64,000 nucleotides of DNA from an uncultured Candidatus Peribacteria bacterium (GTDB lineage Bacteria; Patescibacteriota; Gracilibacteria; BD1-5; UBA2023), in assembly GCA_964644075.1 (NCBI GenBank), contig CAZXUQ010000007.1:35-64034 (forward strand), read 5' to 3'. A program made the translations under genes and the position numbers. Below, one piece after another: positions 818 through 63,728 of this stretch (positions are counted from its first letter, which is position 1; every line of letters begins with the position of its first letter). A model generated the notes under the pieces. The model saw only the letters and a program-made list of their open reading frames with translations. It did no database searches and was not told where the DNA came from.

Positions 818-853
818 TTTCCCGTTCTGCAACCAGACAGGCTCAGCCTCGCA

Positions 854-3253: not shown

Positions 3254-3259
3254 CAAACT

Positions 3260-3772: not shown

Positions 3773-3907
3773 GCGCGGTTTCTATATAAAAATAAGTTCG
3801 AATAACCTAATCATAACCTCTGTTTTGTCAAATTTTTTTCATACTATTCACTATCTGTCAATGACAGAATAGTTTTTGATTTCGAGAAAACTCCCTATAC
3901 TCCTCAG

Positions 3908-4079
3908 GCTCTCCATTCATGGTGGGGAGTGGTGGGCTTTTATATCCCCACCAACTTATTTTTCATTTTTATGAAAATAGTAGTTTCGCTCTCTGTTTGG
4001 AGAGTTCGATTTGCATTCGAGATTGTTCTCGGAAAGTAGATCGAAAAAATCCCCCTAAGTGGTACTATGGGGGATTTTT
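3908..4079 (+). ncRNA. Candidate small RNA, family copy 1 (paralog at 15208-15372)
   Basis: TATACT -10 box at 3896-3901. Nested helices CTCTCC...GGAGAG and GGTGGGGA...TCCCCACC, hairpins TTTTCATTTTTATGAAAA and TCGAGA-TTGT-TCTCGG. Intrinsic terminator ATCCCCC...GGGGGAT plus T-run at 4049-4079. The overlapping 80-aa ORF is not conserved in the paralog. Confidence 0.4.
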
Positions 4080-4157
4080 GATGGTGAGAAGCGATACGCT
4101 TTTATACCAACTTATTTGTCGTAGTTTCGTTCGACATGAGGATTATACCATATTTTC

Positions 4158-5192: not shown

Positions 5193-5231
5193 AAGTTTGC
5201 TTTTTCCTCCTGTTTTCGATATACTCTACAC

Positions 5232-18508: not shown

Positions 18509-18636
18509 AATAATATATGGGTAAAAGAAATAAAGTGCGGATGACTCCGCGATTTGTTTGTGAAAAGTCATGGTCAGTGACTTTTCGGTGACTTCTCTGG
18601 TCAGGAGAAAGTCGCCTGTCTGTTTTTGAGGCAGAC

Positions 18637-28171: not shown

Positions 28172-28174
28172 ACA

Positions 28175-40800: not shown

Positions 40801-41701
40801 TGTTTCCAGAGACTTCTCGAAGTTCCACGCCTGTCGAGTATGATGCGAGATTAGAGAGGTAACTGGTTCCTATATTTTCGAGATCGATATTTTCGAGACG
40901 TATAGGATCGATACCAGCAGAAACACCAAATCTTCCTACCTCCTGACCTATACCGTTTGAGTATATTTTATCGTTTGATGGAGGAGCGACCGTCGCATTT
41001 CTGAGGTTGGCAGGACTGACCACATCTACTCGTCGAGTTGCACCAGAGCTATTTCCCGCATTATCCACCTTCATATAGTCTATATAGTATACTCATACTG
41101 TGTTTGTATCCACGCTTCCACTGACGGCGAATGATCCTGGAGTTCCATATGTTCCTGTGAAAGTATCCCCAGATCCATCCACATTATCTGTCCATGACGC
41201 ACCGGGTTCCATGTAGGTTCCACTCAGTGCGACGGATATATTGCTACCAGAAAGGGTGACAACAGGGGGAGTTGTGTCGGGTGGAGGGAGTGTCGTGATC
41301 GTAAATGTAGCGTTGGATGCTGGATTAGCAATCTCACCACTTCCATTGTACGCTCCTGTGAGCGACACTGTAGCTACTCCATCGACGGAACCACTTCCGT
41401 CATCCATATTGACCGTGTAGTCATAGGTAAATATCGTACCACTTCCGAGGTCTGTCATAGGAGCATCAAATACATCCATCCATCCTGGCTGATCGATAGT
41501 GATGAGTGGAGTTCCTACCACGGTATCTGTATAGGTAGCCGTGATCGTGAGTGTTCCTGTGCCCGTAGGATTACTCGAATATCAGAGTGCTACATCTGGA
41601 CTTGTAGCGTGAGCGATATTGAGAAAAGGGGAACAGAGTGATGTCATAAACGTGATGAGCGTCACGAGACTCGTGCTCCTTCGGAGAGAAAAGGTATACA
41701 T
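34811..41701 (-). CDS. Giant surface protein (2296 aa): signal peptide, S-layer-like module, about 14 Ig-like (DUF5011/HYR-type) repeats, Gly-rich linker and two C-terminal SLH repeats
   Basis: Ten listed minus-strand fragments all share one frame. The three unlisted gaps were checked triplet by triplet and contain only TGA. N-terminus [32 protein letters not shown]. Repeat unit DTTPPVxTLSGSxTVNVEYGxxYxDxGASWTDxxDGSG...GSVNTGxLGTYTLxYxYTDxxGNxxSxxRTVxVxD. C-terminus [44 protein letters not shown] (SLH). Confidence 0.85.
35695..35917. repeat. 223-nt intragenic repeat, about 98% identical to 39061-39283
   Basis: Hand alignment shows 4 mismatches. Encodes ...[72 protein letters not shown]. Confidence 0.85.
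39061..39283. repeat. 223-nt intragenic repeat, partner of 35695-35917
   Basis: See partner. A further 90-nt identical pair lies at 37919-38008 and 39869-39958. Confidence 0.85.
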
Positions 41702-41823
41702 ATGGATATGTGTATGGATATAAATACCCATAGAGACTACTCCATACAAAAAAATATAGCAATCTTCTTACCTTGTTTTCTGAGGAAAATGAATTGACAA
41801 AAATGTATTATAAATTCTATATA

Positions 41824-44697: not shown

Positions 44698-46209
44698 TTA
44701 GCTCCCACGGTAGGAGAGGGCTTCGAGGATATGTTTCACTCCGACATCCTCTGATCCGTCGATATCTGCGATCGTCCGTGCCACTCGGAGGATGCGGTAG
44801 TAGACGCGTGTCGAGAGATGAAGTCGCTCTGTCGATGATATCGCGATGGCTCGGGCCTCGTCAGATATCCGAGCAAATGTCTCGATGTCTTTGTTCGACA
44901 TTTCTGCATTTCGATGGATGTGAGATCCATGAAATCGTGCTCGCTGGAGTCATCGTACATTTTCCACACGCTGTGCATACTCGAGTGTCGACCCGCCACT
45001 TCACTGCTTCTCAAGTTCACCCAGACGCACTCGAGGAACCTGGATAAAAATATCGATACGGTCAAGTATCGGTCAAGAAAGCCTCGAACGATACCGCTCG
45101 ATCGCCACACTCGTACATATACACGGCTTTTCTCGATCACCGAGAAATCCACATGGACATGGGTTCATCGCTCCGACGAGAGAAAATCTCGCGGGATATC
45201 TCGCACTCTGGTTCACTCGATTGATCGTGATCTCACCGTCCTCGAGTGGCTGGCGAAGTGTCTCGAGGATATGCTTGTCGAACTCGAGGAACTCATCGAG
45301 GAAGAGTATCCCTCGGTGTGCCAGAGAGATCTCTCCTGGTCGAGAGTCTCGACCACCACCGATGATGGATGCTTCGCTCGCTGTGTGGTGGATGATGCGA
45401 AATGGTCGCTCGCGGATGATAGGAGTATCTCTCGAGAGGAGTCACGCGACCGAGTATATGCGCGAGAGCTCGATCTGCTCCTCGATATCCATAGAGGGAA
45501 GTATCCCAGCAAGAGCCTTGGCAAGCATGGTTTTCCCACTTCATGGAGGTCACTGCATGAGGATGTTGTGTCCTCAGGCTGCCGCGATGAGGAGTGCTCG
45601 CTTCGCCTGCTCCTGTCCGTGGATCGAGGAAAAGTCCACTCACATATGACTCCGCGGGAGGCTCGACATGTCGAGTGGTGGTACTGGAGTCAGGGGCTTC
45701 TCACCAGTGAGGAGTGCGACGGCCTCACGGAGAGACTCGAGTGGGATGATATCGACATCAGGGATGACTGAGGCTTCTCGTGCGTTCTCTCTCGGGAGAA
45801 ATACTCTCCGTATCCCGATCTCACGAGCGAGTATCGTGGCAGGGAGGGCTCACTGGACTGGTCGTACTCCTCCATCGAGGGCGAGCTCTCCGAGAAAGAG
45901 GGAACTCGATAGGATAGATGCGTCGAACTCGATCTCCTTCGCGAGGATACCGAGGGCGATCGGGAGGTCATAGAGAGGTCATTTCTTCCTCTGGTCTGCT
46001 GGTGCGAGGTTCACGGTGATACGTGCTCAGCCAGGGAAGCTATATCATGAGTTCTTCACAGCGCTCCGTACACGCTCACGTGACTCCTGGATCGCAGCAT
46101 CTCCGAGTCCGACGACGGTGAATTGTCCCATCCCGGTGACGACATCGACCTCTACTTCGACGAGTTGCCCTGAGATCCCAGCGAGAGAGGTGGAAAAAAG
46201 TTTTTGCAT
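44698..46209 (-). CDS. comM: ComM/YifB family Mg-chelatase-like AAA+ protein
   Basis: 503 aa. N-terminal Lon-like domain (GLGDAAIQESRERVRSA), Walker A LMQG(TGA)PPG(TGA)SGKTMLA, GILFLDEF, C-terminal YYRILRVARTIADIDG. Frame checked line by line, only TGA interruptions. Confidence 0.93.
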
Positions 46210-46332: not shown

Positions 46333-46965
46333 ATGAGTAGTGTAAATAGTTCATCAGAAACTCTTCATCCGCTTTCCTTCAATGCTGGACCAGATAGTAC
46401 TGCAAGTGATTATAGCAATCCAGATATTCAAAAAGCATTTCTCCACCTTCCAAAAGCAGATCAGGAGGCTCTTATATGGATTCATCAGAGACAAGCAAAT
46501 ATTCTCAATAGTGCGACTCTTTTCTGACTTACCCTCGACGAGAAACAATCTATCGAGAAAGATATCACAGCACAAAAGCCAATCTGAGTTGGAGAAAGTA
46601 CTCTTGCATATGAGAAATTTTTGAAGCATATCTTTCCAGGAAAATCCGTAACATTTCCATATCTGGCCGATTATGCTGATGCAGTTAAAATCGTCGGAGA
46701 ACTGAGTAAGCTTTTTGAGAAAACAGTAAAACTCCCGAGCAAAGAACAAGCCATAGAATCCCTCAAGGGCAATAAGCACTTCACAGGTTATCGTGATGCA
46801 ATGAGTGGGGAGATCATGGAGAATGCTGAACATGGTTATGCGTGGATCTTTGGTGAGATACTTTTCGACAATGCTTTCTATTTCTGGCACAATCGCAATG
46901 GTGATTCGTATCATGGCTGGTTCAGTCCTCTCTATGGTCGCTCTGTGATCCCAGTCTTTGGATAG
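46333..46965 (+). CDS. Hypothetical cytoplasmic protein (210 aa), first gene of T4SS-like locus 2
   Basis: Two same-frame fragments joined by TGA. TTGACA box at 46277-46282 upstream. Hairpin terminator TCCCTCCG-TCC-TCGGAGGGA plus T-run downstream (about 46996-47025). Preferred over the antisense 255-aa ORF. Confidence 0.5.
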
Positions 46966-47201
46966 GTTTTGATCCGACTCTTTGACACTTTGTCTCTTTT
47001 TCCCTCCGTCCTCGGAGGGATTTTTCAAGGGCGATACTCTTGTCATGAGATAAGTATATCTTCTAAAATACTTTCGATCACAGAAATCCAGAGAAAAACT
47101 CTTTCGTGCAGTATTTCGCATTTCTGTAAAGTCGAAATACCCCTCTCTATTTGGAAGTGGGGTTGTTTTCTGGTACTATCAGAGGAGTTATCACTTTTTT
47201 C

Positions 47202-50201
47202 ATGTTTACGAGACTCATCGCATCACTCCTCATCCTCTTCGCATCACTCGACACCTATGCCATCCAGACACGTGTCGCGACCGCGAAGGAGCAGGAGAAA
47301 GGGGTATTTTCTGTCATCTGGGATACTATCCTCTACATCGCAGAAAACATCGTCACGATCACTCTTTTTATCCTCATTGCATGGATGTTTCTCCGCGTCA
47401 TGCGCCTCGCCTATGAGGTTCTCATGGCCAATCGTCTCGTCTATCTCAAGGTCACACTTCCACGTGCCGACTCCAAGCTCGACAAGGAACGTGAGACAAA
47501 AAAAGATTTCAAAGAAAAGGTCGGTATCATGTCGGTATTTTATAAATCGGTTCACAACCTCACACAGGCAAGTGCTTTCGATACGCTCATGAATTTTATT
47601 TTTCGCCATGCGAAGATTTCTCTCGAGCTCATGTACCATGATGGGCAGGTGCATTTTTATGCTGTCGGATACAAGGAACACCTCTCCCTCGTCGTCCAGC
47701 AGATCACCTCGAACTATCCAGACGCTGAGGTCAGAGTCATCGCAAAAAAAGACTTCCCAGAGATCAAGCCACTCGGTTTTACCCTCCAGGCAGCATCCAT
47801 CTCCAAGGAAAATGACGATATCTATCCGATCAAGACGTATAAATATTTCGAAGATGACCCACTTTCGACTTTTACCAATAATTTTTGATCACTCAAAAAA
47901 ACCGACGTCGCATCGATCCAGCTCGTCGTGAAACCACTCGGTCACTCGTGGAACCGCAAGGCAAAAAAAGCTGCCTGACTCGTGGCGAAATGAGAATACA
48001 AAAAAGGGATAAAATCAGGACTGATCGCCATGATATTTAAATGAATTACTGCGCCGATCTCATGGCTCCTCTACCGATTTATCAAAAACGAAGAAACCTC
48101 TACCAATGCTCCAGGTGCGAGCGGGGGAGACTCGTACAAGATATTTAACCAAGCAGAAACTGAGGCACAAAAGATGGTCGGTGAGTCTGCGGGTCAGCCA
48201 GGATTTGCTGCATCTATGCGTATCCTCGTCTCCTCAGATACAGGAGCATCAGCTCGTAGTGCTCTCCAGAACCTCGTCGCTGCTACCTCGATATTTACCG
48301 ACGAGTACAACAACCGTCTCGGAAACCCACAGATGGTCGAGGATCCACTCAGGTTTATCTTCACGCCACTCCGGTATTTCGCGTATCGATTTCGCTTGGT
48401 GTGAGTATTTCAGTGAGTGAGCAATTTCTCCTGTGATGAACTCTCGACGCTCTATCACTTCCCCGATATCAACTATAATAAATCTCCGATCATCTCGTGG
48501 CTCGAGTATAAGATGCTCGCTCCTCCAGCAAATCTCAAGTTCCCGAAAGAACCACTGATCATGAAGGACTACAAGCGTGACAAAGACGGTCATATCTATA
48601 CTGAGGATGGCTCGCTCCTCCAGGTCGATAAAAATAAAAATCTCCTGCGAAATGCCGACAAAGACCTCATCGCTCTCGATGGGACTGTCATCCCAGTTGC
48701 CAAAGAGTGAGAAGCGATCTGACGCCCTCTCGAAAGTGGAAAAACACCAGTTCAGATCGATGAACAGAGAAAACTCCAGGGATTTTCTCTCTACAAAGAT
48801 GGGGTCCTCATGGGATGGAACGAATACCGAAATGTGAAAACTCCCGTGTACTTCTCTAAAAAAGATCGAGGACGTCATCACTATATCATCGGTAAATCTG
48901 GATGAGGAAAGTCAGTATTCATCGGATACCTCGCGCGTCAGGATCTCTGGGCAGGTGAGGGACTCGGTGTCATCGACCCGCATGGTGATCTCGTGGAGGA
49001 TATCGTCGCATTCACACCAAAAGAACGTGCGAAAGACATGATCATATTTGACCCAGCAGATTACGAGCGTCCTATGGGGCTCAATATGCTCGACCTCATC
49101 TCGACGGATCCAAACCTCCGCACGATAGAAAAAGACCGAGCCGCGCTCGACGCGACATCGATATTTATCAAGATGTATGGAGATGAAATATTTGGACCTC
49201 GTATCCAACACTACTTCCGCAATGGATGTCTCACGCTCATGGATGACGATGAAGATGGTGGAACTCTTATCGATGTACCACGACTCTTTGTGGATGAAGG
49301 ATTTATGAAATATAAAGTTTCAAAGGTAAAGAATGTCATGGTAAAAGCATTTTGGGAACATGAATATGCACAGACGGGTGATCGAGAAAAACAGGAAATG
49401 ATCCCATTTTTCTCAGCAAAATTTGGACCATTTATCACCAACGCGACCATGCGAAATATCATCGGTCAGACAAAATCAGCGTTTAACCTGCGTCAAGTGA
49501 TGGACGAACAAAAAGTCCTCATGGTAAACCTCTCAAAAGGAAAAATCGGTGACCTCAATGCCCAACTCCTCGGTCTCATCATGGTCTCAAAGATCAATAT
49601 GGCTGCGATGTCGCGCGCTGATATGCCAGAGGACCAGAGAAAAGACTTTTTCCTCTATGTCGATGAGTTTCAAAACTTCGCAACCGATACCTTCGGTGAG
49701 ATCCTCTCCGAGGCTCGTAAATATCGACTTGCTCTCATCATGGCGCATCAGTTTATCGCACAGATCGGCGGGTCCTGAGATAAGCAAGGAAAATGAGGAA
49801 AGCCATCGATCAAGGATGCTGTCTTTGGAAACGCCGGTACGATCATGTCGTTCAAAGTCGGTGCTGAAGATGCAGAGTACCTCGAAAAAGAGTACGCCCC
49901 AATGCTCTCACAGCAGGACATCATCGGGATCGCGAACTTTACAACCTACTGTAAACTCAATATCGATAACGCGACCACTCGACCATTTGACCTCAAGACA
50001 ATCTGGGATAACACGTATAAAAACGCAGAAGTATCGAAAATCATCAAAGAATACTCTCGAAAAATGTATGGTCGTAAAAAAGAATACGTCGATATGGAGA
50101 TCGAGGCTCGTATGTGAGTCCTCAAAGACGATCCTATCGAAGAAAATAATGGACAATCAACCTCAACAGAAATAACGCCTTCTACAGAACCACCATCATA
50201 G
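47202..50201 (+). CDS. VirD4/TraD-type coupling-protein-like ATPase, paralog 3 (about 999 aa, with extra insertions)
   Basis: Six same-frame fragments joined by TGA. Signal/TM N-terminus. Motifs IIGKSG(TGA)GGKSV, DPHGDL, GLNMLD, FLYVDEFQNF, SEARKYRLAL, GNAGTIMSFKVG. Collinear with paralog 2, for example GDEIFGPRIQHYFRNGCLTL. Confidence 0.8.
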
Positions 50202-50358
50202 TTTTTCTTTTGTCATCCTGGAGGGATCCCTTTCAAAACGATAGAAAAGAGTGTTACTAACCAAAATCTCTTAAGCAAATGAAAAAGCTATTCCTCTGCT
50301 CCGTTCCACTTCGCGACGGAATGACAAAATTACAATAGTTTGAATCTTTACTTCTTCC

Positions 50359-51570
50359 ATGCTTCATAAGATCCTCCCTGTCATCATCGCTCTCCTCGTC
50401 GTCCTCGATAGTTATATTATCGCAGGATTTTGAGGAAGTGGACCGTTTGTTTCTATGATACAGAGTTGGACACCGTTTGTTTTTGGATCGATCGTCGTCG
50501 CGCAGATCCCACTGCTCTACTTCGTCGTGTATAAGGCGTACATCTGACCAGTCCAGCACCTCAATCAAAGTATCGCCAAGTTTATGACTGGTATCGATGA
50601 GGAGCCCGATCTCGAGCAAAATAGCTGGAGCAAGGGGATGAACTATATCATCGGATTTTTCGTAAAGAGTCTCCAGATTTTGAAGGTGTTCAAACAGGAG
50701 CTCCGAGATGGACGCAAGCTCCGATCTGAGGTCGAGATCGCGAGTGAAATCCAGAAACATGTCATGGCAGATGAATCGACCGTCATCCCATCGCTTGAGA
50801 TCGCCCTCGCGAGTGCTCCTGCGAGCGAAGTCGGAGGAGACTCACTCGATATCATCCCAGGAAAAAATGGAAACTACTACATCTATATCGGTGATGTGAC
50901 GGGACATGGCGTCCCGAGCGGGTTCGTCATGATGATGGTGAACGCACTGGTATCAGCATTCGTCTCGGGAGAAGAAAGTAGTGCTCGAGTGCTCTCCGAG
51001 ACCAACCGCATCCTCAAGCCTCGTATCAAGCAAAATATGATGATGACTTGTGTGATGCTCAGATGGAACGAGACGACAAAATCTCTCTACTATACCTGAG
51101 GTGGTCACGAATATCTCCTCGTCTATAAAGCAAAAGAAAATAAAGTCTATAAAATAAAATCCTGATGAGTGGCTATCGGAATGGTCCGTGATGCGTCCAA
51201 GGCACTCATCGAACAGCAGATCCTCTTCGAAAAAGATGATGTCATCATCCTCTATACTGATGGTATTACCGAGGCTCGTTACCGCAGTGAGCAAAATTGA
51301 CTTCTTTTCGGAATCGATAGAATAGTCGAGTCCATCATGAAGGTCCAGACGAAATCCTCAGAGAATATCTTCCGTCAGATCACTATCGATCTCTCCTCAT
51401 TTATGGGCTACAAACACAAACAGTATGATGATATCACACTTTTCGTAGCACGAAATGTCGGATCCTGAGGTATCACGCTCGGTAAGATCCCACAAATGAT
51501 CAATCCGACCAATATCACAGAATGGAACTGGTGAGTACAACAGAAAACCGATGAACCGATCATTCAATAA
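50359..51570 (+). CDS. Membrane-anchored PP2C/SpoIIE-type serine/threonine phosphatase
   Basis: Two N-terminal TM helices and a linker, then the PPM motifs EIQKHVMA, EVGGDSLDI, IGDVTGHGVPSGFVMMM, LYTDGITEA, DDITLFV. Confidence 0.75.
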
Positions 51571-51584
51571 TATTTCTTTTCCCT

Positions 51585-53558
51585 ATGGCGGTACCCTCTC
51601 TCGCAGATCTCGTAAAAATAAACTACACTGGCGATGTCGAATGACTCGAATCAGGAGTAGTGAATTTCGTCGGCTCAGATGGTATCTCTCAGGGTGCCTC
51701 TCTTGCCAACCCTGCTGATATCACACCACTTCCTCCTCCTTCGCCAGTTTCGCCAACTTCGACACCTTCGCCAAAAATCCCACTCGATCTCGATGATCCT
51801 GACCGCAAGCTCACCAAAGAAGAAGCTCTCGAACTCAAAGAAGCAGAAAAAGAATATAAAGAAGCTCTCGCCTACGTCAAAGACATGATCGCTCCTGCGA
51901 TGATGCGCATTGACGCGACCAAACTCCAGATCGGAGATACCTATGTACGTACGATCTTTACCTATGCCTATCCTGATGTTCTCGAGTGAAATTGGCTCTC
52001 ACCGCTCATCAACTGGGATGTGAAGTGTGATGTGTCGATGTTTATCTATCCAGTAGACTCTGCTCGAGTCATGCGCTACCTCCGTAAGCGTCTCACCCAG
52101 CTACGGTCTCAGTACTCGATCAACCGTGAGAAATGACTCATCTCTGATCCGCACCTCGATGCGCAGATGCAAGATGTCGAAGAACTCCAGGTATCACTCA
52201 CGCGTGGTCAGGAGAAATATTTCCACTTCTCACTCTATATCACGACGTATGCAGAGAGTGAAGAGGAGATGAAGCGACTCTCCAATACCCTCGATGTCAT
52301 GCTCGCAGGACGAAACATCCTCACAAAGCAGGCATTTCTGCGTGCTGAGCAAGGATTTGTCGCGACGGGTCCATTTGCTCGAGACGAGGTCAATGTATTT
52401 CGAAATATTTCGACGAAGGGGCTCTCGACGACATTTCCATTTTCCTCGAATTCACTCTCTCAGGATGATGGGATATTCTACGGGATCAATACGCACAATA
52501 ACTCTCTCATCATCTTCGATCGGTTCAAGACAGAAAATGCAAATATGTGTGTCTTCGCGAAGTCAGGATGAGGAAAGTCGTTTGCTGTAAAACTCGAAAT
52601 CCTGCGCGCTCTCATGCTCGGAACGGATGTGATCGTCCTCGATCCAGAAAATGAGTACCGCGCCCTCGTCGATACAGTCGGTGGAACCTACCTCAATATC
52701 AATCTCAACTCAGATGAACGTATCAATCCGTTCGACCTCCCACGATCACTCAAAGATACCGACACACATCCTGGAGATCTGCTACGAGGTGCTGTGGTGA
52801 ATATGATCGGTCTCCTTCACCTCATGCTCGGTGAGATCACGCCAGGTGAAGAGGCGATCCTCGAACGCGCCCTCATCACGACCTACTCGCTCAAAGGGAT
52901 CACGATGGAAGATGACTCGATCGAAAACAAAGAAATCCCACTTATGAAAGATTTCGTCTCCGTCCTCGAGACGATGGATGGTGCGAAGGGCCTCGTCGAG
53001 CGCCTTGATAAATATGTAAATGGAGTGTTTGCCTGAGTGTTCTCTCAGTCGACCAATGTCGATCTCAAGGAAGGCCTCGTCGTCTTCTCAGTACGTGATC
53101 TCGATGAGATCCTCCGACCGATCGCTATGTACATCCTCCTCAACTATGTATGGAACGTCGCTCGTTCGAGTGAAAAAAAGCGAATGCTTGTCGTGGATGA
53201 AGCGTGGAATATTATGCAGTATGAGGACTCAGCAAAATTCCTCTTCGGACTCGTGAAACGTGCTCGTAAGTATGGACTCGGTGTCACGACGATCACACAG
53301 GATGTCGAGGATTTCATGCAGAACCAATATGGAAAAGCTATCGTGACGAACTCATCGATCCAACTGCTCCTCAAACAATCACCAGCCTCTATCGATATCC
53401 TGCAGGATATATTTAAGCTTACCGAACAAGAAAAATATATCCTCCTCAATGCCTCTGTCGGTACAGGACTCTTTTTTGCCTGAGGAGAACATGTGGGTAT
53501 CCAGATCCTCGCATCGTATTTCGAAGAGAAGATCATCACGACCAAGCCAGCAGTATAG
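51585..53558 (+). CDS. virB4: VirB4/TraC/CagE-type type IV secretion ATPase
   Basis: Four same-frame fragments joined by TGA. Walker A VFAKSGG(TGA)GKSFAVK, VVLDPENEY, Walker B MLVVDEAWNIM, RKYGLGVTTITQDVEDF, LLLKQSP. Proline-rich N-terminal linker. Confidence 0.85.
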
Positions 53559-53680
53559 AAAATATATAGAAATAGAAAAAACGTAAAAGTCTCTCCTAAT
53601 ATGAGAGATTTTTTATTATTTTTTTGTTTATCATTCGAAAGTATGCGACACTATATGTACATTATTTTTTATTAGTACGT

Positions 53681-54343
53681 ATGAAATCTCTCGTCTCCCT
53701 CCTTGCCCTCGTCTCCCTCACTACCCTCACCCTCAGTGCCTCCCTCGTCTCTGCTTCTCAGATCGGTACCGGTACCGTTGTCGGAAGTGGTGCCCTCACA
53801 GCTCCAATTAACTGGAACGATACATTCGTCTCTTCCTCTGCCTCTGGTAGTATCAATGGTATCGTCGTCACAGGTCGTATCCTCCCAACACTCAATATGA
53901 CGATTTCTGGATCTGGTACGATCGCTCTCGGTAACCTCTCCAGTGCAGCAGCTTCTACTGGTTCAGTCAGTATCGAAATCGGTACAAATGCTATCAATGG
54001 AGCCTCAGTAACAGCACGTTCTACGAACGCTGGTATGACCAATACCTCTTCTGGTGCTATCGTTATCAACAGCCTTTCTGCAGATGGATTTGCAGATAGC
54101 TATAAATTCGTATCATCAGCAGCAGCCACAGACTCTACTGCTCCTGGATTCTCTCAGACAGCAGCACTCAATACAGAAGTCAACAACAACACTACCAACC
54201 ATGCAGTCTATAGCTGTACTCGTCCTCAGCCACTCACTGGTGTCGATGACATCACTTTCTCTGTCGTCGCACAACCAAATGCACAGACTCCAGCAGGGGA
54301 TTACCGAGATGTTGTCGTTATTACGGTAAGTGGGAACTTCTAA
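53681..54343 (+). CDS. Small secreted Ser/Thr/Ala-rich beta-type protein (possible fibre or pilin-like subunit)
   Basis: Signal peptide MKSLVSLLALVSLTTLTLSASLVSA. C-terminal AGDYRDVVVITVSGNF resembles the terminal strand of fimbrial/SCPU-type subunits. No TGA and no sorting signal. Confidence 0.55.
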   Translation: MKSLVSLLALVSLTTLTLSASLVSASQIGTGTVVGSGALTAPINWNDTFVSSSASGSINGIVVTGRILPTLNMTISGSGTIALGNLSSAAASTGSVSIEIGTNAINGASVTARSTNAGMTNTSSGAIVINSLSADGFADSYKFVSSAAATDSTAPGFSQTAALNTEVNNNTTNHAVYSCTRPQPLTGVDDITFSVVAQPNAQTPAGDYRDVVVITVSGNF

Positions 54344-54362
54344 TATAGTATCTGTCAATCCA

Positions 54363-54391
54363 AAAACCTGAGAATTTCTCAGGTTTTTTTG
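54363..54391 (+). terminator. Intrinsic terminator
   Basis: AACCTGAGA-ATT-TCTCAGGTT plus a T-run. Confidence 0.75.
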
Positions 54392-54438
54392 CAGAAAAAT
54401 ATATAGATATGATAGTCTAAGGATATAACTATTTTTCT

Positions 54439-57400
54439 ATGTCTTCTCTTACGCAAAAATCTCTCTCTGGACTTCTCGCCTTTGTCCTCAGCTTCGAGTC
54501 GATCATCTCGATCGCTCTTATTTCATCTGTCTCACTTGCGAGTGTAGAGACGACATTTGCTACCCCGAGCTCCTACTCGAAAAAAGCCTATCTCCAGGTA
54601 GCACCGAGCACACTATGAGCGAGTCTCGATCCATCGACAGGGAACTGGTATATGGATACTCCGACTTCCTCAGTCTCTTCTGGTCAGACATACCGATATG
54701 TCCTCGATATGTCGAGCGCGAGTGATGATATGCCGAACTATGATGTCGCGGTCAGTGACTATCTCGCACTCGGGCATACTGGTGTGACTTCACCACGCGT
54801 TCCGACAGCATCGGGATGGGCAGTTCTCGGTACTCCGACTGTCGGCACTCCGACAACGATCGCAAGCTGGACACATGCGAGTGGAGCGGTGCGAAATGTC
54901 ACAGACTCATGAGTACTTCAGTGGGTCGGTGGGCAAAATAAACAAGCTGGAAACCTGAGCGTCACGACACCACATCAAGCAAATCCCCTTACTCTTACGG
55001 GTATCCAGTCTCTTGCAGGACTTGACTCGAGCACGACCGATGGGTTCACCTCTCAGACACTCATAAACGGAAGTGGTGATGTAGTGATCTTTTCCGTCAG
55101 CCATAATAATAGTATCCTCATCCGAGCCGCTAATATGACGAATGGTGTCTATACATCGACACCTTTTCTTTCCGGAACTGGATATACATCGGAAAATAAT
55201 GGCATCATCCTCCAAGATACGACCAATAGGGACAAAATATATATCCTTAGACATGACAATGTATACACCTGTTATGACATTTCTCGAAACCCTTCTCATG
55301 CAGTTACAACTTGTACTCCAGCGACGTTCACTGTCTCTCCTGTCTCATTCTCTCCTCGCACAAGTAGTGGAGCGTGGCTCCCTTCCTCTACAGCTTTCGC
55401 GATCGTCGCAGACCGACTCTATGCCTGAGTTCTCGGCACTGATGGAGATACCTACTTGACTTGTACGACGACAGCATGATCTCACTGTGGTGAGTGGCGT
55501 GTCGGTACGGGGACAGATTTTGGGACATCGTTTCATAAACACTCGACACAGCTCACGACCGAGAAATTTGCTTTCGCACTTTCGAATGGACTCCAATACT
55601 GTATCCGAGAAGTCGCATCTGGGTCACTCGCTCTCTGTGATGGAACAGCACTTCCACCGACTGGAGCGGATATCACATCTTTCGCGAGAAATATAGGAAC
55701 AGCGGGAGGACTTTTTTACCCGCCTCCAGGAGATCCTGTAAGACTCGGATGGACGGTCTTTCCTCGCGTCGAAAACGGAAGCACGACGGGATACTGTTAT
55801 AGTGACAAGACAGCATCATATATCGGGAATGCTTCTGTCTGTCGAGATCTTTCGGATGCCCTGGTTCCGACCGATAGTCCTGCGGGTCCAAACTTCCACA
55901 ACGTCGTCTGAGTGATCCCATGAAGCTCTCGTGTTCTCATCAACCATAGTTCCACTTCAGGATATTTCGGTCCTCTTCCGACGTGTTATGACTTCTCTAC
56001 TCATAGTACTTGTGGAAATACAGTCAACTGGAGACAAGACGAATATGGAGGATCATTTATCTCACCGACCTGTTATGTCACGATGGATGATGGTGCTGCT
56101 TATGGAAATATCAGCTCGTTTGCTCTCTATCGGTACTCGACTGGAGCAGTAGGAGAGCCACTCATGACGAGACTCGGTACTCCTATCGGGACACTTACGG
56201 GCGAACTCTACCACAATGGTTCTGGGTATTTGCCAACAGGAAATATGGTAACCAACGAATATAGCTACTCTCAGTCTGATGTCGATGCATGTAACGCAGG
56301 ATGAGCTCTCGATATCCCCGATCCAAGTCCGACGACTACTACCGTTACCGTCAAAACCCAAGATCCTCTCGGCGTCAATACCTGTGCTCCTGGTCCTGAG
56401 ACGATAAGTTGGGATATGCTTACCATCAGTGCGTTGCCTCTAGGATATACGAGTGCCACAGGAACCATCCTGGATATGAGTGGAAATATTATCGTCGAAT
56501 ATTCATTTTCTCCACTGACAGGACTCACCCAAAATATCACTGCCCAAGTACCCTATGCGAGTTACCCACAGTTTCAGGTGCGACTCGATATCCTCGGAAC
56601 AGGCAGTAGCCTCTCAGGAACGATCATCGCTCTTACTCACACATCGAGTAAGTGAGGTCCTCAGATTTGTTATGATGCGACGGTTACTCAGGCGATGTGT
56701 GACACTCCTCACCCTGTCTCATCTGGTCCACTTGACCCTCTCGATCCGTGGATCGGATCTGGTACCTGGAGTCCAAATATGTTTCGCAGTGTGAGCTCCT
56801 TCAGCGGACTCACAACAAGCACACCGATCATCCTCACTTCTGATGGGACCACTCCAGTATGAGTATCGTGTGCTCCTGTAGAAGTCGGCGGCAATCTCTG
56901 GTACGATGCCGACCACGATGGTATCCAGGATGCGAGTGAGATATTTTTCTCTGGTGCTGCTATCCGCCTCCTCGATCCTCTCGGAAATACGGTCGCGAGT
57001 GGTACAACTGACGCGAGCGGTGGGTATCTGTTTTCCAATATTTCTGGGACCAATACTCTATCAAATATCTACAACCTCTTCCTCCCATCGAGTGCGACGG
57101 GATATAGTATCGTGATCGATAACAGCGCCTGGGCATCTACAGGAGTACTCTTTGGATATACTCCGACCTCATCTCTTCAGTGAGGTGACCGGACTCTCGA
57201 CTCCGACCTCACCACGCTTTCTGGGGGAGTGATGGGTACACCTCTCACGCTTCCCGCCGCTGGGTCATCGGATCTCACGTATGATTTCTGAGTATTTCCC
57301 GATATCGAAATCGGAGATCGTGTCTGGAACGACATCAATGCAAATGGGATCCAGGATGGTGGGGAAAATAGTATCATGAACGCGACGGTAGAACTCCTCG

Positions 57401-60400
57401 ATGCGAGCGGTGCTGTGATCGCCTCAGCTCTGACAGATGGATTTGGAAACTATACTTTCACATCCAATGCCATGACAGGATCGACACCATCCTTCGTCAG
57501 TAACCTCCCTCTCGAGCTCGCAGGATCGTACTTTGTGTGACTTGCGGCTTCGAATTTCACTCCATGAAATACCCTCGATACCGCTATGGGCTGGACTGTC
57601 AGTCCAGGATCGAGATGAGGGAACTCTACTCTCGACTCAGATGCTGATATCACTCTCCCGACCAATTCTCCATCTCTTGGCTATACGACTATGGTGCTTC
57701 ATCCGTTTGGTTTTGCGACGGGAAGTGGACGATATCTCCTTCATGATATCGATTTCGGAGCATATCTCGGTTTCGACATTTCTCTTAAAAAATATATCGA
57801 TACTGTTGCTCCATCCTCAGATGCAGATACGAGCGGAAGTGGTGTGTATGAGGGCCTTGGAAGTGCCCTGACCTATATCATCCGCGTATCCAATCTCGGA
57901 CCTGGTCAGACCCACGGAGAAACCGTCGTCACTGATACGCTCCCGAGTGGAGTCACGATGACGAGTCTCCCGAGTGGATCAGGATGGTCATGTAACGCCA
58001 GTGGTGCTGACATCACGTGTCGATCGACAGATATAGTCCTCGGAAGTAGTGCCTATAGTGACATCTCTATCCCCGTCACCGTCACTGCGAAAGATGCTAT
58101 CCTCACCAATACTGCCCTCGCAACCAATCTCGAAGAACTCCCAGGACAAACATCGAATAACACTGATCCTGCTGTATCTCTCGTTGTACCAGTTATCATC
58201 GGAGACCGCGTCTGGAACGACACTAACCGAAATGGTATACAGGACAGTGGAGAAACTGGTATCCCTCTCGTCCACGTCTCTCTCCTCGATGCGAGTGGTG
58301 CTGTCGTCGCGACTGCGGTCACGAACGTCAGTGGTGTCTACACCTTTTCGAGTGAGTCTGGATCGACGAGTCCAGATGGTTCCTATGTGCGAAATGCACC
58401 AATCATCCCATGAGCAAACTATACGATCTCCCTCGATGCTTCGAACTTCACGAGCGGGACACTTTCTGGCAGCTACCGACCGAGTCCTACAGGCGCGGGT
58501 ACTCCGACGACCGACTCTGATGGTCAGCCGACCGCGACCCCAGGTACCACTGGTGTAAATTCACTATCGTTTTCTGCGCCTCCTGTGACAGCGCTCGCGA
58601 GTGCACGTACGGATACGAGCCGAGATTTCGGATTGTACCAGGATTTCGATATGCGCGTGACGAAGTATATGAGCATCTTCTCATGAGCCCTCCAGGACGC
58701 GAACTCTCCAGCGACGAGTTCAGGAGATGTAAATAGTCTCTGATATGGAGATACATTTCTCTATACCGTCCGTGTTACCAACCTCGGACCTGGCCCACTC
58801 CTCGGCACGACGTACGTCTCTGATACGCTCCCGAATGGAGTCACACTCGATCCGAGCTTCGTTGCTCCAAGTGGATGGAGCTGTAGTGTCAGCGGACAAA
58901 ATATCCTCTGTAACACTGCGACCGGAGCTCTCTCTGGTGCGAGCCTCACAGATATCGTCTTCCCAGTCCATGTCACGCTCACCGATGCTGTCGGTGCACA
59001 GAGTCTCACCAACACCGTCTCGGTATCCAATAGTGCTGAAATCTCGATCGCTCACAATCCTGCAAACACTGGTAACCCGAGCAATCCTGGAAACCCAAGT
59101 GATCCAAATGCTCCGAACCCGAGCACGCCCGAGTGACAAAATAACACTGATACCGCAGTCGTAAGTATCTATCCTGTGACTGTCTGAGACCGTGTCTGGA
59201 ACGACGCAAATCGAAATGGTATACAGGACAGTGGAGAAAGTGGGATTGCCTCTGTCGTGATCGATCTTTCTCTCTCTGGTACGACGATCGCGAGCGCGAC
59301 GACCGATGCTTCATGAGCATTTCTCTTCTCGAGTGCGACGGGAGTGAGCACGACATCTCGCGTCTATGGTATGCTCTTTGCGCCGAGTGCGACGGGGTAT
59401 ACATTCTCCCTTCGTCCATCGAACTTCCTCTCTGGGTGAGTCCTCTACGGTCTCATGCCGACGACGGCTCTCGCATGATCAGATCGTACTCTCGACTCCA
59501 ATCTCACTACCCTCTCGACGATCGCTCTCACTCTCCCTGCGCACGGAGGGGTCGATATGTCGTATGATGCAGGACTCATGACTCCACCTCCAGTACCGTC
59601 GACACCGACTTCATGACCAGGTGGCGGACCATGACCAACGTATGTTCCACCGACGACCTCGACACCTCCATCGACGTCCCAATTCCAGCAACCATTTGTT
59701 CCGATCGGTGTACAGACAATATTCCAACAGACTCCTCATACTCCAGAGAAATCTCCTCGTATCGAAGCGTTCCCAAGCCTCGAACACTATCCATACGGAC
59801 CAGCAGGAGATCAGTCTCTCCTTCCGAACGACCGAGTGAATGGAACTCTTGCGACAGTAAAAAATGTCACGGTAAAGCTTCTCGATAATGGTGGTATCAA
59901 AGGTCTCACGCTCGATCCAAAAACAGGAAAAATCCTCTTTCCTCCGAAAACGGCTCCAGGAAAGTATACTGTCTCATATGCGATCACCGATGTCTCCGAT
60001 CCAAGCAATACAGCCGAGTCGGTCGCTGTCATCATCATCGATCGTGCGAAGCCGACATTTGTCCTTCCGAAAAAACTTCTCGACACGGGGACTCCGATCG
60101 CCAAAAAATGAATTCGCATCATAGCGAACTTCCTCGTCGCGACGAAAGCGATGTTCCCGTCGGCATATGGATTTGCTCATGTCGGAGACGCTCCTCGTGA
60201 TATCGCTTTCTGGAAAAAACACCTCTCCGAAACACTCGGAGGCAAGTACCAAGAAAAAGATAATAATGCCAAAACGTACATCGTCGTGCCATCGATCGGT
60301 ATCGTCACCCCTGTCTATGATATCCTCGATAGCAGTGAGAAGTCGAGCCAAAAAGATTTCGATACTCTCGTCTCATGAGGCGAAATTAAGGTCAATCCAT

Positions 60401-60774
60401 ATCTCCATGACGGTGTCGTCCACTACCCACGATCAGCCAGTGCTGGCGAAGTCGGGAATATGGTCGTCGCAGGACACTCATCCTACTGGAACCGTGATGC
60501 AGGACGCTATAAGACCGTGTTCGGGAACCTGATGGAGCTCGATGCTGGTGAGGAAGTCTGGGTCTACACACAGAGCTCCACAGAGAAATCAGGCTACGCC
60601 CTCCATCGCTATCGTGTCACTGCCTCATACAACACTGATCCGACCAATGTCAGTGTTCTCCTCCCCGATGGAGACAAAAAGATCATCACCCTCTTTACCT
60701 GTACTCCAGTTGGTGGACTCTCGGGTAGATGGATCGTGAGAGGGGAGCTCGTAGAAGAAAATAAGGAAAGTTAG
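54439..60774 (+). CDS. Giant surface adhesin (SdrD-B/Cna-B-like and DUF11 repeats) continuing in frame into a sortase domain (2111 codons, no TAA/TAG)
   Basis: All listed fragments between 54652 and 60774 share frame 1. My manual translation finds only TGA between them. Signal/TM N-terminus, Cys-rich N-terminal region, four GDRVWND.N.NGIQD..E.G repeats, two DUF11-like units ([12 protein letters not shown]..., [12 protein letters not shown]...), Pro-rich stalk, LLDTG at 60076-60090, TGA at 60109-60111, then [18 protein letters not shown] and sortase motifs [22 protein letters not shown]. Confidence 0.75.
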
Positions 60775-60806
60775 ATATCTGAAAAATTTGCATTTTCTCA
60801 CTATTT

Positions 60807-60837
60807 AGAGTAGGATTATGATAATCCTACTCTTTTC
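60807..60837 (+). terminator. Intrinsic terminator after the adhesin-sortase ORF
   Basis: AGAGTAGGATT-ATGAT-AATCCTACTCT followed by TTTT. Confidence 0.7.
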
Positions 60838-60846
60838 ATTTTCCCT

Positions 60847-63078
60847 ATGAAACCCTCTCTCCTTTCCCGCCGTGAGAAACTCCTTCTCGCTCTTCTCACA
60901 TCTACTCTCATCTTCTCAGCTTCCTTCTCCTATGGAGCAGTAAGTCAAACCAAAGTGGATGCTATCATGAAGATGATCAATGAGGGAGCTATGAAATTCT
61001 CAGATATACCTGTCACAGGACAAACCAAATCTGAGAGAACGGCATACTACGAGAAAGTAGATGCAGGACTCTGAGATGCTGTAGAGATGCTTGCAGTGGT
61101 GAGAAACAATATCCGATCTCTCATGTGACTCTCTCCAGCATATACAGCAGATGCTATCATAGGAGATGTCCTCGGTGGAGTTATTGGTGGAGTGAGTGGG
61201 GGGAACAATTGAGGAAATACTGGAAATGGAAACAACGGAAGTGCAACGAGTCCCAACACAAACCCTTCTACAGGCCCTTGGCTCGAGGTAGGAACCATAT
61301 CCTGTCCTACAGGTCTGGATAAACTCCAGACAGCCAATCCATCCACATACAAAAGTGGTGAAAATCCAAACGGGTATCAGTATACATCCACAGCAGGCTC
61401 ATACTACAACGTCAAAGATCACACCAATGCAACAGATACCTCTCTCCCAACATCGTGTATCTGAGGAGAATATTGGGTCAGTCCCACAACAACAGGATGA
61501 CAGTGTAAGCTCTCTACCTGTACTACGATGAAGAACTACTGTCCATCAGGAAAGAAATTCCCTGACTATACAATACTTGACTCATCTGTACCAAACCGAT
61601 TTGATATGCCAATACGTGATTATGCTGACCGAGCAATAACAAATGGAAAGATTGATGTAGGTGCTGCCTTGAAACAACTCGATAAGGTGACAACCGTGAA
61701 ATTCACGATTGCTCCATGGCAGAAAACGAAGGACTCTATTGGTCAATTGGGAATATATGAAACTCCATGAGCAAATCCAGCATTTCGTCTCATCACGATT
61801 TCACGTAATCCGTGCGACTTTAATCCGCGTACCACTCGTGGCTACTCAATAGAAAATTCTTCAAGTCCTAGATTTACTGTAAACGATACACGTGTAGGAA
61901 ACTCACCGTATGACTTTGTTCCACTCAGCACAGGAACATGGTATATAAATATCCTTCCTCTTGACGGATGTGCTGCACCAGGTGCGCCTGCTGGATCTGA
62001 CCAGACATGTATGACCAGACTCAATATATATAATGGTGGGAAAGCCTTTAACGATATAGGGGTACGACCATATACTCCACGGCCACAGGAAGATTTGAAA
62101 GATGGTCTTGTTTCTGGAGACGCCGTGACAGATAATTTTTCTTCTTCCCCATCATCGACCCCTCCTCCTACGACCTTACCACCTGTAACTGCTACCAATA
62201 TGTGTCCTGCTGGGCAGAGTTACCCAGACTCTAAGTTTTGAGACTATCATGACCTCCCGAGTCGGCAGATGTTTAAGAGTACTGATCCTACTCGTACGTA
62301 TACCGTAGAAATGAATATCAAAGATACTACTACTGCAGGGAAACTGGAAGGAGAACTCCCGACACTTACCTATGCCGAAGCCCCTGGAAGTTTGATTACT
62401 GGATGGAATGTCAGTATTTCGAGAAATCCTTGTGACTTTTCATCATCATCACAAACTGTAGTTGCAAATGACGTGATCGGATGGAGGTACTACTCTGTCA
62501 ATGATAAGAGAACAAAACCTGGTATCCTGAACCTTGCACCAGGAAAGTGGTATATCAACTTCAAAGTTGCTCAAAAATGTATCACACCATGAAAACCAGC
62601 AGACTCTCCAAACCAAGATAACTGCGGAATATTCTTCGAACTTCCTGGTTATGGACTTCAGACATACATCAACTATACTCCGACTCTCACCGTACGCGAT
62701 ATCAATAAAAAAATATCTAATACTACCTGTGAACTCACCGTAGCAACCAATATCAGTGGTAACTTTACCAGATATCGTCCGATCTGGAGTGAATACCTTC
62801 CCGAAGTTTCTGGAAACTACTACTATATAGGTGGATCGACTATGGTAAGCAAAGAAGATTACCTCAAACAGCTTTCTCCATGTGGAAGCGGTATCAATGT
62901 AGGAACGACATGAGACTGGATGAATGCAGGAAGATGAGATATCTGTAAAATAGGTACAACCATACTTCGTCCTATTGCTCCAAACAACGACTGTAAAGCT
63001 TTATGTCAGACAATCGGCTGAGGTACTGAAAATGGCGACTGTCGTCCACCAAACGGAAAAGAATTTACAGGTATATAG
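60847..63078 (+). CDS. Secreted Cys-rich hypothetical protein (743 aa) with an internal duplication
   Basis: Signal-like N-terminus. Frame checked line by line. Duplicated module ISRNPCDF...(T/P)G(T/K)WYIN(I/F) at about 61.8 and 62.4 kb. Pro/Ser/Thr linker SSSPSSTPPPTTLPPVTAT. About 30 Cys. Confidence 0.6.
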
Positions 63079-63164
63079 TCTGAGCTCCTTACATTTTTTT
63101 GTAATGAAAACTTGCAAAAAACGAATATTCGCTATACTTGGCGAGTATTCTTTTTTCATTTCTT

Positions 63165-63728
63165 ATGATAACTGCTCTCAAAGCTCGTACTGGTACAGTA
63201 CTCAAAATCGACTGAGGACTCTTCCTCGTGGTCAGACATGAAATGCGTCGTGGTGGACGTGGAGCAACAAACGTGGCTGTACGACTCAAAAACCTCATGC
63301 AAAATGGTATGGCTGATAAGGTCCTCGACTCAGAGGAAAAACTCGAAGATGTTATCCTCGAGCGTGCTAAGGCAGAGTATTTATACTCTTCAGGAGACAC
63401 GTATTCATTTATGAACCAGGAGACGTATGAAACCGTCGACCTCCATGAGGATGATGTCGGTGATGCTGCAATGTATCTCACTGAGGGTGTCGTCGTGGAT
63501 CTCCAGACATTTGAGGGAAAATTTATCGGTATCATCCTCCCACTCAAGGTTACTCTGAAGGTTGTCGAAGCTGAGCCAGCCGTCGCAGGAAATACCGCTG
63601 ATGGTAAGGTTGATAAAGTAGTAAAACTCGAAACAGGTCTCGAGATGCGCGTCCCAGGATTTGTAAACCAAGATGAGTCGATCGTTATCAATACAGAAAC
63701 TGGAGAATATCTCGAACGAGCAAAATAA
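63165..63728 (+). CDS. efp: Elongation factor P
   Basis: MITALKARTGTVLKIDG(TGA)GLFLVV...GRGATNVAVRLKNLMQNG...ETGLEMRVPGFVNQDESIVINTETGEYLERAK is typical EF-P. Confidence 0.93.

Follow-up and report, generated by a model that had tools for sequence, protein, structure and literature searches.

Chromosomal type IV secretion systems (T4SSs) that are relaxase-less and related to the MPF-FATA type have been described in Patescibacteria, Gracilibacteria included (PMC12102498, Quinonero-Coronel 2025). The same study placed only 148 of 5,713 type IV coupling proteins (T4CPs) near virB4 and counted only about 100 Patescibacteria genomes with a relaxase; for Gracilibacteria, it located TrsD and VirB3 away from virB4 and detected no VirB6. 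The T4SS of S. epibionticum (Saccharibacteria) is essential for epibiotic growth (PMC10633639, Wang 2023), and the Saccharibacteria system has no recognizable relaxase, which points to protein export or some other function (PMC10633639; for a review, see PMC12857230). Here, we compare with these systems a locus of seven genes, g1 to g7, at positions 46333-63078 of a 64,000 nt stretch of DNA (the window) from an uncultured Candidatus Peribacteria bacterium of the Gracilibacteria (assembly GCA_964644075.1, contig CAZXUQ010000007.1). An initial annotation had presented the locus as a single T4SS-like surface apparatus, and as a combination that did not correspond to a described system.

We consider it likely that the locus consists of a conserved T4SS operon, g2-g3-g4, together with lineage-specific insertions comprising g1 and g5-g7. 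The operon encodes a T4CP, a membrane-anchored PP2C phosphatase and a VirB4 ATPase, and is the energizing module of the chromosomal, relaxase-less Patescibacteria T4SS already reported for Gracilibacteria in PMC12102498; in that respect the system is a described one. Coordinates are positions in the window, and all seven genes are on the + strand. L-numbers designate related loci of other genomes, and P-numbers related database proteins.

The conserved operon and its boundaries

The VirB4 gene, g4, lies in an open reading frame (ORF) of 678 aa at 51522-53558. As its homologues are approximately 645 aa in length, the likely start is M22 and the likely gene 51585-53558. The protein scored 355 bits against the NCBIfam model VirB4-like conju_CD1110 (cut-off 325) and 86.8 bits against Pfam P-loop_TraG, and matched the VirB4 structure 4ag5 in the PDB with an E value of 9e-47. 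The T4CP gene, g2 (47202-50201), encodes a 999 aa VirD4/TrwB-family ATPase with a transmembrane (TM) helix at aa 46-64, an N-terminal domain of ~470 aa recorded as DUF8128 (JGI precomputed Pfam; PF26449 on orthologues) and a P-loop domain at aa 546-897. It scored 40.8 bits on Pfam T4SS-DNA_transf (gathering score 20.1), its best PDB match was TrwB (E 1e-3), and it missed every NCBIfam equivalog cut-off, with a weak match to CD1115; judged from its sequence, g2 is a divergent member of the coupling-protein family. The ATPases thus form a VirB4 and VirD4-family pair of the monoderm (MPF-FATA-like) type. The initial annotation had called them VirB4-like and VirD4/TraD-like, and both family models bear this out, g4 passing the conju_CD1110 cut-off and g2 the T4SS-DNA_transf gathering score.

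Homologues of this VirB4 number more than 6800. The best 120 cluster representatives share 76-91% identity, and every one of these that bears an organism name is from the Gracilibacteria. A scan of GTDB species representatives returned 80 loci, in which VirB4 identity was 54-87% for those labelled Gracilibacteria or Peribacteria and ~48-51% for those labelled Saccharibacteria. When the window proteins were searched by tblastn under genetic code 25 against 84 related loci, a g2-type T4CP joined the PP2C-VirB4 pair in 14 loci, including all of the closest, where trxB, a bPH gene and comM also precede it; the order in these closest relatives is trxB-bPH-comM followed by T4CP-PP2C-VirB4, and the comM flank is syntenic in ~15 relatives. 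In the subclade of the window, the T4CP belongs with the pair. Unsupervised clustering of the neighbourhood ORFs recovered VirB4 in 40 loci, PP2C in 39 and T4CP in 14, whilst no family downstream of virB4 occurred in more than six; PP2C and VirB4 were the only families with broad conservation.

The remaining genes behave differently. None of g1, g5, g6 or g7 has a homologue within 10 kb of virB4 in the 84 related loci, even at E≤0.01. By blastn, the window is colinear with the close relative L007 through comM and g2-g4 up to 53558, and again from 63160, at efp; the virB4-efp spacer of L007 is ~82 nt. Because efp directly follows virB4 there, the 9.6 kb g5-g7 block is an indel. The block is also missing from L005, L006, L008 and L014, and so is g1. 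The coding scores of the insertion genes were lower than those of g2-g5. We conclude that g1 and the g5-g6-g7 block are lineage-specific insertions and not conserved partners of the T4SS. In several relatives, the place directly after virB4 that g5-g7 occupy in the window is held by a protein of ~305 aa, ahead of a pseudouridine synthase (L010 11940-12854; L012 6683-7630; L014 11992-12915; L032 11965-12882; and right after virB4 in L003 and L004). Its N-terminus resembles PilX or a minor pseudopilin (for example GSALLIGLVxxxL).

Signals predicted along the + strand match these boundaries. Terminator-like hairpins are located directly after g1 (47001-47020; 8 bp stem with six GC pairs, and a T-run), after g4, where one closes g2-g3-g4 (53585-53613), after g6 (60807-60833), after g7 (63123-63150) and also directly after efp, and a promoter-like site precedes g2 (47040-47069; TTGTCA-18-TAAAAT, 10/12 match). 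The scan returned 27 terminator-like sites where 12.2 were expected. From this arrangement we infer the putative transcription units [g1], [g2-g3-g4], [g5-g6], [g7] and [efp].

The original proposal, that all seven genes form one surface apparatus in which the T4SS ATPases assemble or export g5, g6 and g7, is in our judgement quite improbable. The genes are co-directional, closely spaced and all written in code 25, Gram-positive conjugation systems do use sortase-anchored adhesins (PMC12857230), and one relative, L090, carries a g5 orthologue and a g7-like gene ~3 kb apart. Against this stand the absence of g1, g5, g6 and g7 from every related virB4 locus, the abutting of efp and virB4 in L007, the hairpin after g4, and the fact that the g5 family has arrays of its own elsewhere in genomes. 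Furthermore, g5, g6 and g7 carry Sec-type signal peptides, and therefore need no T4SS.

The kinship of the ATPases with conjugation systems raised a further alternative, namely that the module is a decayed integrative conjugative element (ICE) whose relaxase and integrase have been lost or lie outside the window. Like the T4SSs of Gram-positive ICEs and plasmids (CTn2 CD1110/CD1115, pCF10 Prg and pGO1 Trs), the locus has a VirB4 that passes the CD1110 cut-off, here an equivalog-level match to an ICE-type family, and belongs to a monoderm envelope; the T4CP is adjacent, and adhesin-mediated contact is a shared theme. Unlike those systems, it is chromosomal and vertically inherited, and no relaxase, VirB1 hydrolase or VirB6/VirB8 analogue was found in it. 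The locus keeps its place between comM and efp across species-level genomes, and the 76-91% VirB4 identity amongst many Gracilibacteria points to vertical inheritance under strong purifying selection. Pfam and NCBIfam searches detected no relaxase, integrase, VirB6/8/9/10/11 or VirB1 in g1-g7 or in the scanned flanking ORFs of the window, and no relaxase domain in any scanned window ORF, although oriT was not searched for. Direct repeats flank neither the whole locus nor the g5-g7 block, the repeats seen being the internal SdrD_B and DUF11 families; the absences claimed in the initial annotation, att repeats included, were therefore upheld in the scanned window ORFs. The one tRNA in the vicinity is on the far side of efp, and few Patescibacteria genomes have a relaxase, as set out above. 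A decayed ICE is accordingly the explanation to which we assign the least weight, and we regard it as very improbable.

It had also been suggested that the locus is a dedicated machine for DNA uptake or for attachment to a host or prey. A host or prey role is plausible, whereas DNA uptake fared poorly. An uptake machine of the Ced-like or ComB-like kind, acting with comEC, comF and comM, would fit the missing relaxase, the divergent comM as an immediate and conserved neighbour, and the presence of comEC and a comF-like gene in the window; g4 also matched CedB (56 bits) and g2 matched CedD, both weakly. However, the Ced cut-offs of 600-700 bits are far from reached and the best model for g4 is the conjugative VirB4 CD1110 family, whilst comM lies on the opposite strand with the housekeeping gene trxB. 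In S. epibionticum, transformation depends on comEC, which the cell can do without, yet the T4SS is essential, so that ComEC-dependent transformation is genetically separable from T4SS essentiality in Saccharibacteria (PMC10633639). We therefore view the uptake machine as improbable, and retain the reading of g2-g3-g4 as part of a conserved T4SS.

Like the Patescibacteria-type T4SS of S. epibionticum (SEML1_0006-0019), the locus is chromosomal and relaxase-less and encodes a monoderm conjugative-type VirB4, and VirB2-like pilins and a VirD4-family T4CP are present in the genome. Unlike most Patescibacteria systems, it has its T4CP adjacent to virB4. Pfam and NCBIfam searches of the scanned window ORFs found no VirB3/PrgI, VirB6/PrgH, VirB8/PrgL or TrsD, and tblastn of the window with the TrsD-like and PrgI-like proteins of the Gracilibacteria locus L008 gave no match. 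In L008 and L017, also from Gracilibacteria, these two genes lie 6-8 kb off on the opposite strand, and these results agree with PMC12102498, where such genes were dispersed or undetected. The remaining parts of the machine would be encoded elsewhere, with the VirB3/PrgI-like and TrsD-like genes outside the window. In the arrangement we propose, the VirD4-family ATPase and the signature ATPase VirB4, with the two-TM PP2C protein encoded between them, would sit at the cytoplasmic membrane and would power assembly and the transfer of substrate to a host cell. The analogy with Saccharibacteria makes a protein or other cargo the probable substrate, rather than relaxase-bound DNA.

A membrane phosphatase upstream of virB4

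The gene between the two ATPases, g3 (50359-51570), encodes a 403 aa membrane-anchored Ser/Thr phosphatase of the PP2C (SpoIIE/RsbU) type, which scored 140.7 bits against Pfam SpoIIE/PP2C (threshold 25). Two N-terminal TM helices precede a catalytic domain at aa 170-365. The catalytic site is intact: the four metal-binding Asp motifs (D161, D179, D301 and D357/D358) are invariant in 39/39 g3 orthologues, and we therefore predict from the sequences that g3 is an active enzyme under selection.

The PP2C gene is directly upstream of virB4 in 37 of the 41 loci with VirB4 identity of at least 60%, all from Gracilibacteria, and in none of the 29 loci below 60%, which fall outside the clade. In Saccharibacteria this slot belongs to TrsD, and TrsD-like genes were found there immediately upstream of virB4 in ~23 loci; TrsD, PrgI and VirB6, by contrast, are not in the locus studied here. 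L024 (JBAZVA010000054.1) is labelled Candidatus Woesearchaeota archaeon and has a Gracilibacteria-type PP2C-VirB4 pair, with VirB4 68-72% identical; this is probably a mis-binned contig. The T4CP-PP2C-VirB4 order is confined to Gracilibacteria, where it is conserved, and seems to be undescribed. The terms 'phosphatase', 'SpoIIE' and 'PP2C' do not occur in PMC12102498, and our literature search returned no paper linking PP2C or SpoIIE with VirB4 in the candidate phyla radiation (CPR).

The window also contains a second T4SS-related cluster, which the initial annotation had omitted. This cluster (410-7661, + strand) encodes the T4CP paralogue c2 (410-3253; 947 aa, 39% identity to g2 in the NTPase domain), an unknown protein c3 (3260-3772, - strand), a fused VirB2-like T4SS pilin c4 (4158-5192; 344 aa with two to three repeats, Pfam T4SS_pilin PF18895 58.5 bits) and a further T4CP paralogue c5 (5232-7661; 809 aa, 50% identity to g2 in the NTPase domain). 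It also matches Pfam TrwB_AAD_bind and T4SS-DNA_transf, and brings the T4CP paralogues within the 64 kb to three (g2, c2 and c5). A homologue of c4 lies between T4CP and PP2C-VirB4 in L016 (3068-11950) and L021 (2790-11959), which represent another Gracilibacteria subclade and have the order comM, T4CP, fused VirB2-like pilin, radA, rpmE, PP2C and VirB4. This gene order ties the VirB2-like pilin, T4CP, PP2C and VirB4 into one system and puts PP2C inside a true T4SS cluster. As a separate observation, radA recurs near surface-appendage loci, being present in L016 and L021 and also after the g5-family arrays of L085, L088 and L090 described below.

There is a precedent for a phosphatase of this family in a secretion system. 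PppA is the PP2C phosphatase of the type VI secretion system (T6SS) threonine-phosphorylation pathway of Pseudomonas aeruginosa, where it acts with the kinase PpkA and with Fha1. As in that pathway, the PP2C gene here is encoded within a secretion-system cluster and would presumably gate its activity; the secretion system is a different one, the enzyme is membrane-anchored and of the SpoIIE/RsbU type, and no kinase or FHA protein was found. By this analogy, the membrane PP2C would set the phosphorylation state of a T4SS component, and hence its activity, in a manner comparable to PppA. Ser/Thr-phosphorylation control of the T4SS motor, with a regulatory role, a substrate and a kinase to match, is what we infer for the phosphatase.

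Alternatively, PP2C may regulate envelope stress or the cell cycle independently of the T4SS, its only tie to virB4 being a common transcription unit. Neither a partner kinase nor a phospho-acceptor domain was found, and in the other Gracilibacteria subclade the upstream genes look, by N-terminal sequence, like cell-division and pilin genes, both of which would suit such a regulator. On the other hand, the adjacency to virB4 outlasts extensive rearrangement of the surroundings in the 37 loci counted above, and the phosphatase fills the place of TrsD. We consider an unrelated regulator unlikely, if conceivable, and prefer to see the phosphatase as part of the T4SS operon.

The genes that adjoin the operon

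The first gene of the inserted block, g5 (53681-54343), encodes a secreted subunit of 220 aa that the initial annotation had taken for part of the T4SS. Behind the signal peptide, a flexible N-terminal extension of ~50 aa leads into a beta-sandwich at aa 78-220; Pfam gave no match. The AlphaFold2 (AF2) model has a pLDDT of 77 overall and >85 for aa 80-220, and the top Foldseek match of this model was the archaic chaperone-usher pilin CsuA/B (7zl4; E 4.8e-4, probability 1.0), followed by Fim, Pap and Caf1 pilins. The NCBIfam model CPR_Pam_pilin_C aligned with g5 over its full length at 21.6 bits, below the cut-off of 55; it matched 45 of 53 members of the g5 family at E≤0.01, with a best value of 1e-6 and all scores under the cut-off. 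A g5-family profile found no match amongst PDB sequences.

Pam pili are assembled from donor-strand-exchange pilins with membrane-anchored PapD-like chaperones, and were placed mainly in Saccharimonadia and Microgenomatia, with Gracilibacteria unmentioned (10.64898/2026.03.03.709456, Troman et al. 2026, preprint). g5 resembles the Pam and Csu pilins in its signal peptide and in its C-terminal truncated-Ig beta-sandwich, which matches CsuA/B by fold and, weakly, CPR_Pam_pilin_C by sequence. Unlike Pam pilins, it falls below the family cut-off and is without the N-terminal nine-strand sandwich domain. It cannot be PamA-like or PamB-like, because ~50 low-confidence residues separate the signal peptide from the C-terminal domain, but could resemble the single-domain Pam subunits. 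No gene for a Pam-type PapD-like chaperone was found in the window. We best read g5 as a distant single-domain Pam-like pilin whose usual assembly partner is absent from the window; it would be a pilin of the donor-strand-exchange type, distantly related to the Pam pilins of the CPR.

The genomic distribution of the family also separates g5 from the T4SS. Its 235 homologues, of ~220 aa, are all unannotated. In relatives they occur as two to three tandem paralogues, followed by a protein of ~490 aa and then by radA, and none is near virB4 (L085 9171-13065; L088 9216-12244; L090 9187-12207). These tandem arrays elsewhere in genomes, together with the Pam-like and chaperone-usher-like character of g5, speak against the subunit being a T4SS part. 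The ~490 aa protein begins with a signal peptide and has a TM helix at its C-terminus together with a Lys-rich tail, and the arrangement of pilin array plus signal-peptide and C-terminal-TM protein recalls PamC and PamD of Pam operons; the protein is a candidate PamC/PamD-like membrane-anchored chaperone. Searches for a PapD/DUF916-like chaperone relationship gave non-significant hints only (E 0.03-0.05 to fn3_5 and WxLIP_PGBD).

The second gene, g6 (54439-60774), encodes a secreted adhesin-like protein of 2111 aa. A signal peptide and a Cys-containing N-terminal region of ~800 aa are followed by four SdrD_B and two DUF11 domains, and then by a Pro-rich linker, an Ig-like domain, an LPXTG-like motif and a sortase. 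The motif, LLDTG (aa 1880-1884; 60076-60090, + strand), is located ~65-70 aa before the sortase domain (aa 1949-2105; 60283-60753, + strand), which scored 75.3 bits against Pfam Sortase (threshold 26.6). The domain fell under every curated class cut-off, class E being the best at 51.7 versus 160 bits. Its triad motifs, with His in AGHSS (aa 2011-2015), Cys in TLFTC (aa 2084-2088) and Arg in GRWIVRG, align across 17 relatives. The only hydrophobic segment of g6 is the N-terminal signal, and no TM helix lies between motif and catalytic domain.

A search with the TGA-free last 131 aa against 1.84 billion representatives gave 2,309 matches to the sortase domain, and ~15 of the best 150 were proteins of 1,000 aa or more in which the sortase is C-terminal or nearly so. 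These giant proteins share only their last 240-320 aa, and their passenger domains differ. In the alignment of the 17 modules, an LPXTG-like motif stands ~70 aa ahead of the sortase and is kept as LPxTG, LLxTG or LAxTG (variants LPDTG, LPKTG, LPQTG, LLKTG and LAQTG; W stands for Gly where TGA was read as Trp), followed by a polar linker of ~65 aa and then the sortase, without a TM helix or charged tail. The family consensus is LPxTG, and the strict motif was found at that position in 27/73 relatives, against 0.008 expected per such window. Where family members carry names, they come from Gracilibacteria, with 'DUF11 domain-containing' or 'sortase family' as the sole annotation. We also note that this arrangement of variable passenger, motif, linker and unanchored sortase is a recurrent Gracilibacteria architecture (relatives P0243-P0343), amounting to a fusion of substrate and enzyme.

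The comparison with known adhesins brings out what is unusual in g6. Like the MSCRAMM adhesins SdrD and Cna, it combines SdrD_B/CnaB-type stalk repeats with an LPXTG-like motif, and its sortase has an intact His-Cys-Arg triad. In contrast to an MSCRAMM and its housekeeping sortase, the substrate and the enzyme are in one polypeptide; in contrast to the canonical LPXTG signal and sortase, there is no TM helix or positive tail after the motif and no N-terminal sortase anchor. The layout suggests self-processing, in which g6 probably cleaves its own LPXTG-like motif and moves the passenger domain to an amine acceptor. Our literature search found no description of sortase-LPXTG fusions in the CPR or Gracilibacteria. 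The inserted surface-protein genes may serve attachment.

Taken jointly, the phosphatase and g6 would describe a CPR T4SS that is switched by PP2C-driven Ser/Thr phosphorylation in Gracilibacteria, alongside a self-contained 'autosortase' class of adhesins. In this joint account, PP2C perhaps senses host contact through its TM and linker region, and an adhesin of 1,880 aa could be covalently joined to a peptidoglycan or protein amine, possibly on the host or prey. We put this combination forward tentatively, and think it rather unlikely to hold in full.

The last gene of the block, g7 (60847-63078), encodes a 743 aa secreted protein with 18 Cys residues and no Pfam match. It had no PDB match and no relative in JGI metagenome contigs, and only two homologues, both partial, amongst 5.8 billion proteins. 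A conserved N-terminal part of ~110 aa (a signal peptide and a segment that is apparently helical by eye) is 81% identical to P0241, whilst the module at 143-225 sits in a different position, at the C-terminus of P0241. The genomic contexts of P0241 and P0242 were uninformative; L090 has a g7-like N-terminus after radA (13630-13836). g7 is a polymorphic, fast-evolving, module-shuffled Cys-rich secreted protein. A conserved N-terminus with an unrelated or shuffled remainder is a pattern typical of polymorphic surface or toxin-like proteins.

At the other end of the locus, g1 (46333-46965) is an orphan ORF of 210 aa. Its coding score was +0.19, compared with -0.20 for the antisense ORF. No match was found in Pfam, NCBIfam, the PDB, the 84 related loci or the metagenome scan, and a single-sequence AF2 model of aa 86-210 was uninformative (pLDDT 50). 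A suspected resemblance of the C-terminus to the Fibrobacter 'major paralogous domain' was unsupported by Pfam at E≤1 and was dropped.

Several points weigh against the account given here. Equivalents of VirB3, VirB6 and VirB8 were not located, so that completeness of the machine is an assumption. Neither the scanned window ORFs nor the conserved families around virB4 in relatives included a kinase, FHA or STAS partner of the phosphatase, and the adjacency of PP2C to the ATPase genes could reflect co-transcription without functional coupling. The block g5-g7 could have been lost repeatedly in relatives, rather than inserted here, and the terminator and promoter calls are pattern matches only. 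As for the surface proteins, g5 scores below the Pam cut-off, does not have the N-terminal beta-sandwich of PamA and PamB and has no chaperone gene in the window, and self-cleavage of g6 is proposed from its architecture only.

Setting of the locus and its meaning

The locus is flanked by housekeeping genes. Upstream is the Mg-chelatase-like comM (44698-46209, - strand; Pfam Mg_chelatase 302 bits) and downstream is efp (63165-63728, + strand; Pfam EFP domains), with uvrA, trxB and the gene for a bPH protein close by. The nearby tRNA is a tRNA-Leu; an Rfam search matched only a tRNA.

The use of TGA for glycine reported in the initial annotation is shown directly. In UvrA, TGA occupies the invariant glycine in each of the two Walker A motifs (GVS-G-SGKS) and the two ABC signatures (LSG-G-E), and in ComM that of the motif G-PP-G-SGKT. 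With table 25, ORFs of at least 150 aa total 40,250 aa in the window, compared with 6,960 aa with table 11, under which the g1-g7 region breaks into fragments. Under code 25 all seven ORFs exist at the coordinates given here, as first annotated, and in a codon-usage test all seven genes scored positive and their shadow ORFs negative; the earlier domain calls likewise all held in the Pfam, NCBIfam and PDB searches. Public proteins of these organisms often carry Trp where TGA encodes Gly (code 4), as in 'KSGWGKS' and 'LPKTW', a mistranslation that impairs both motif searches and profile models in this clade.

Giant surface proteins are unusually numerous in the window. Beyond the locus, it encodes a protein of 2306 aa with 18 Bact_surface_Ig-like repeats (34811-41731, - strand) and a 1009 aa protein with an SLH domain, probably an S-layer protein (15542-18571, - strand). 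An AT-rich stretch at 26810-29377 (GC 0.34-0.40, window mean 0.45) encodes two proteins without a family match, one of 453 aa, Lys/Glu-rich in its N-terminal part and hydrophobic at the C-terminus, and the other, very hydrophobic, of 400 aa.

For the annotation of related genomes, our findings mean that the seven genes are juxtaposed, and that the 'machine' should not be passed on as a new system. A Pam-like g5 would extend a newly described CPR pilus family to Gracilibacteria, a class without a prior report. If g6 processes itself, it would unite sortase and substrate naturally in a single chain; such a protein could serve as a tool for protein ligation, and would have a bearing on the attachment of wall-less-host predators or epibionts. 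In the one system tested, epibiotic growth requires the CPR T4SS. A phosphatase conserved across the class Gracilibacteria offers a testable regulatory handle on this secretion system, and a bait for the phosphorylated component and its kinase.

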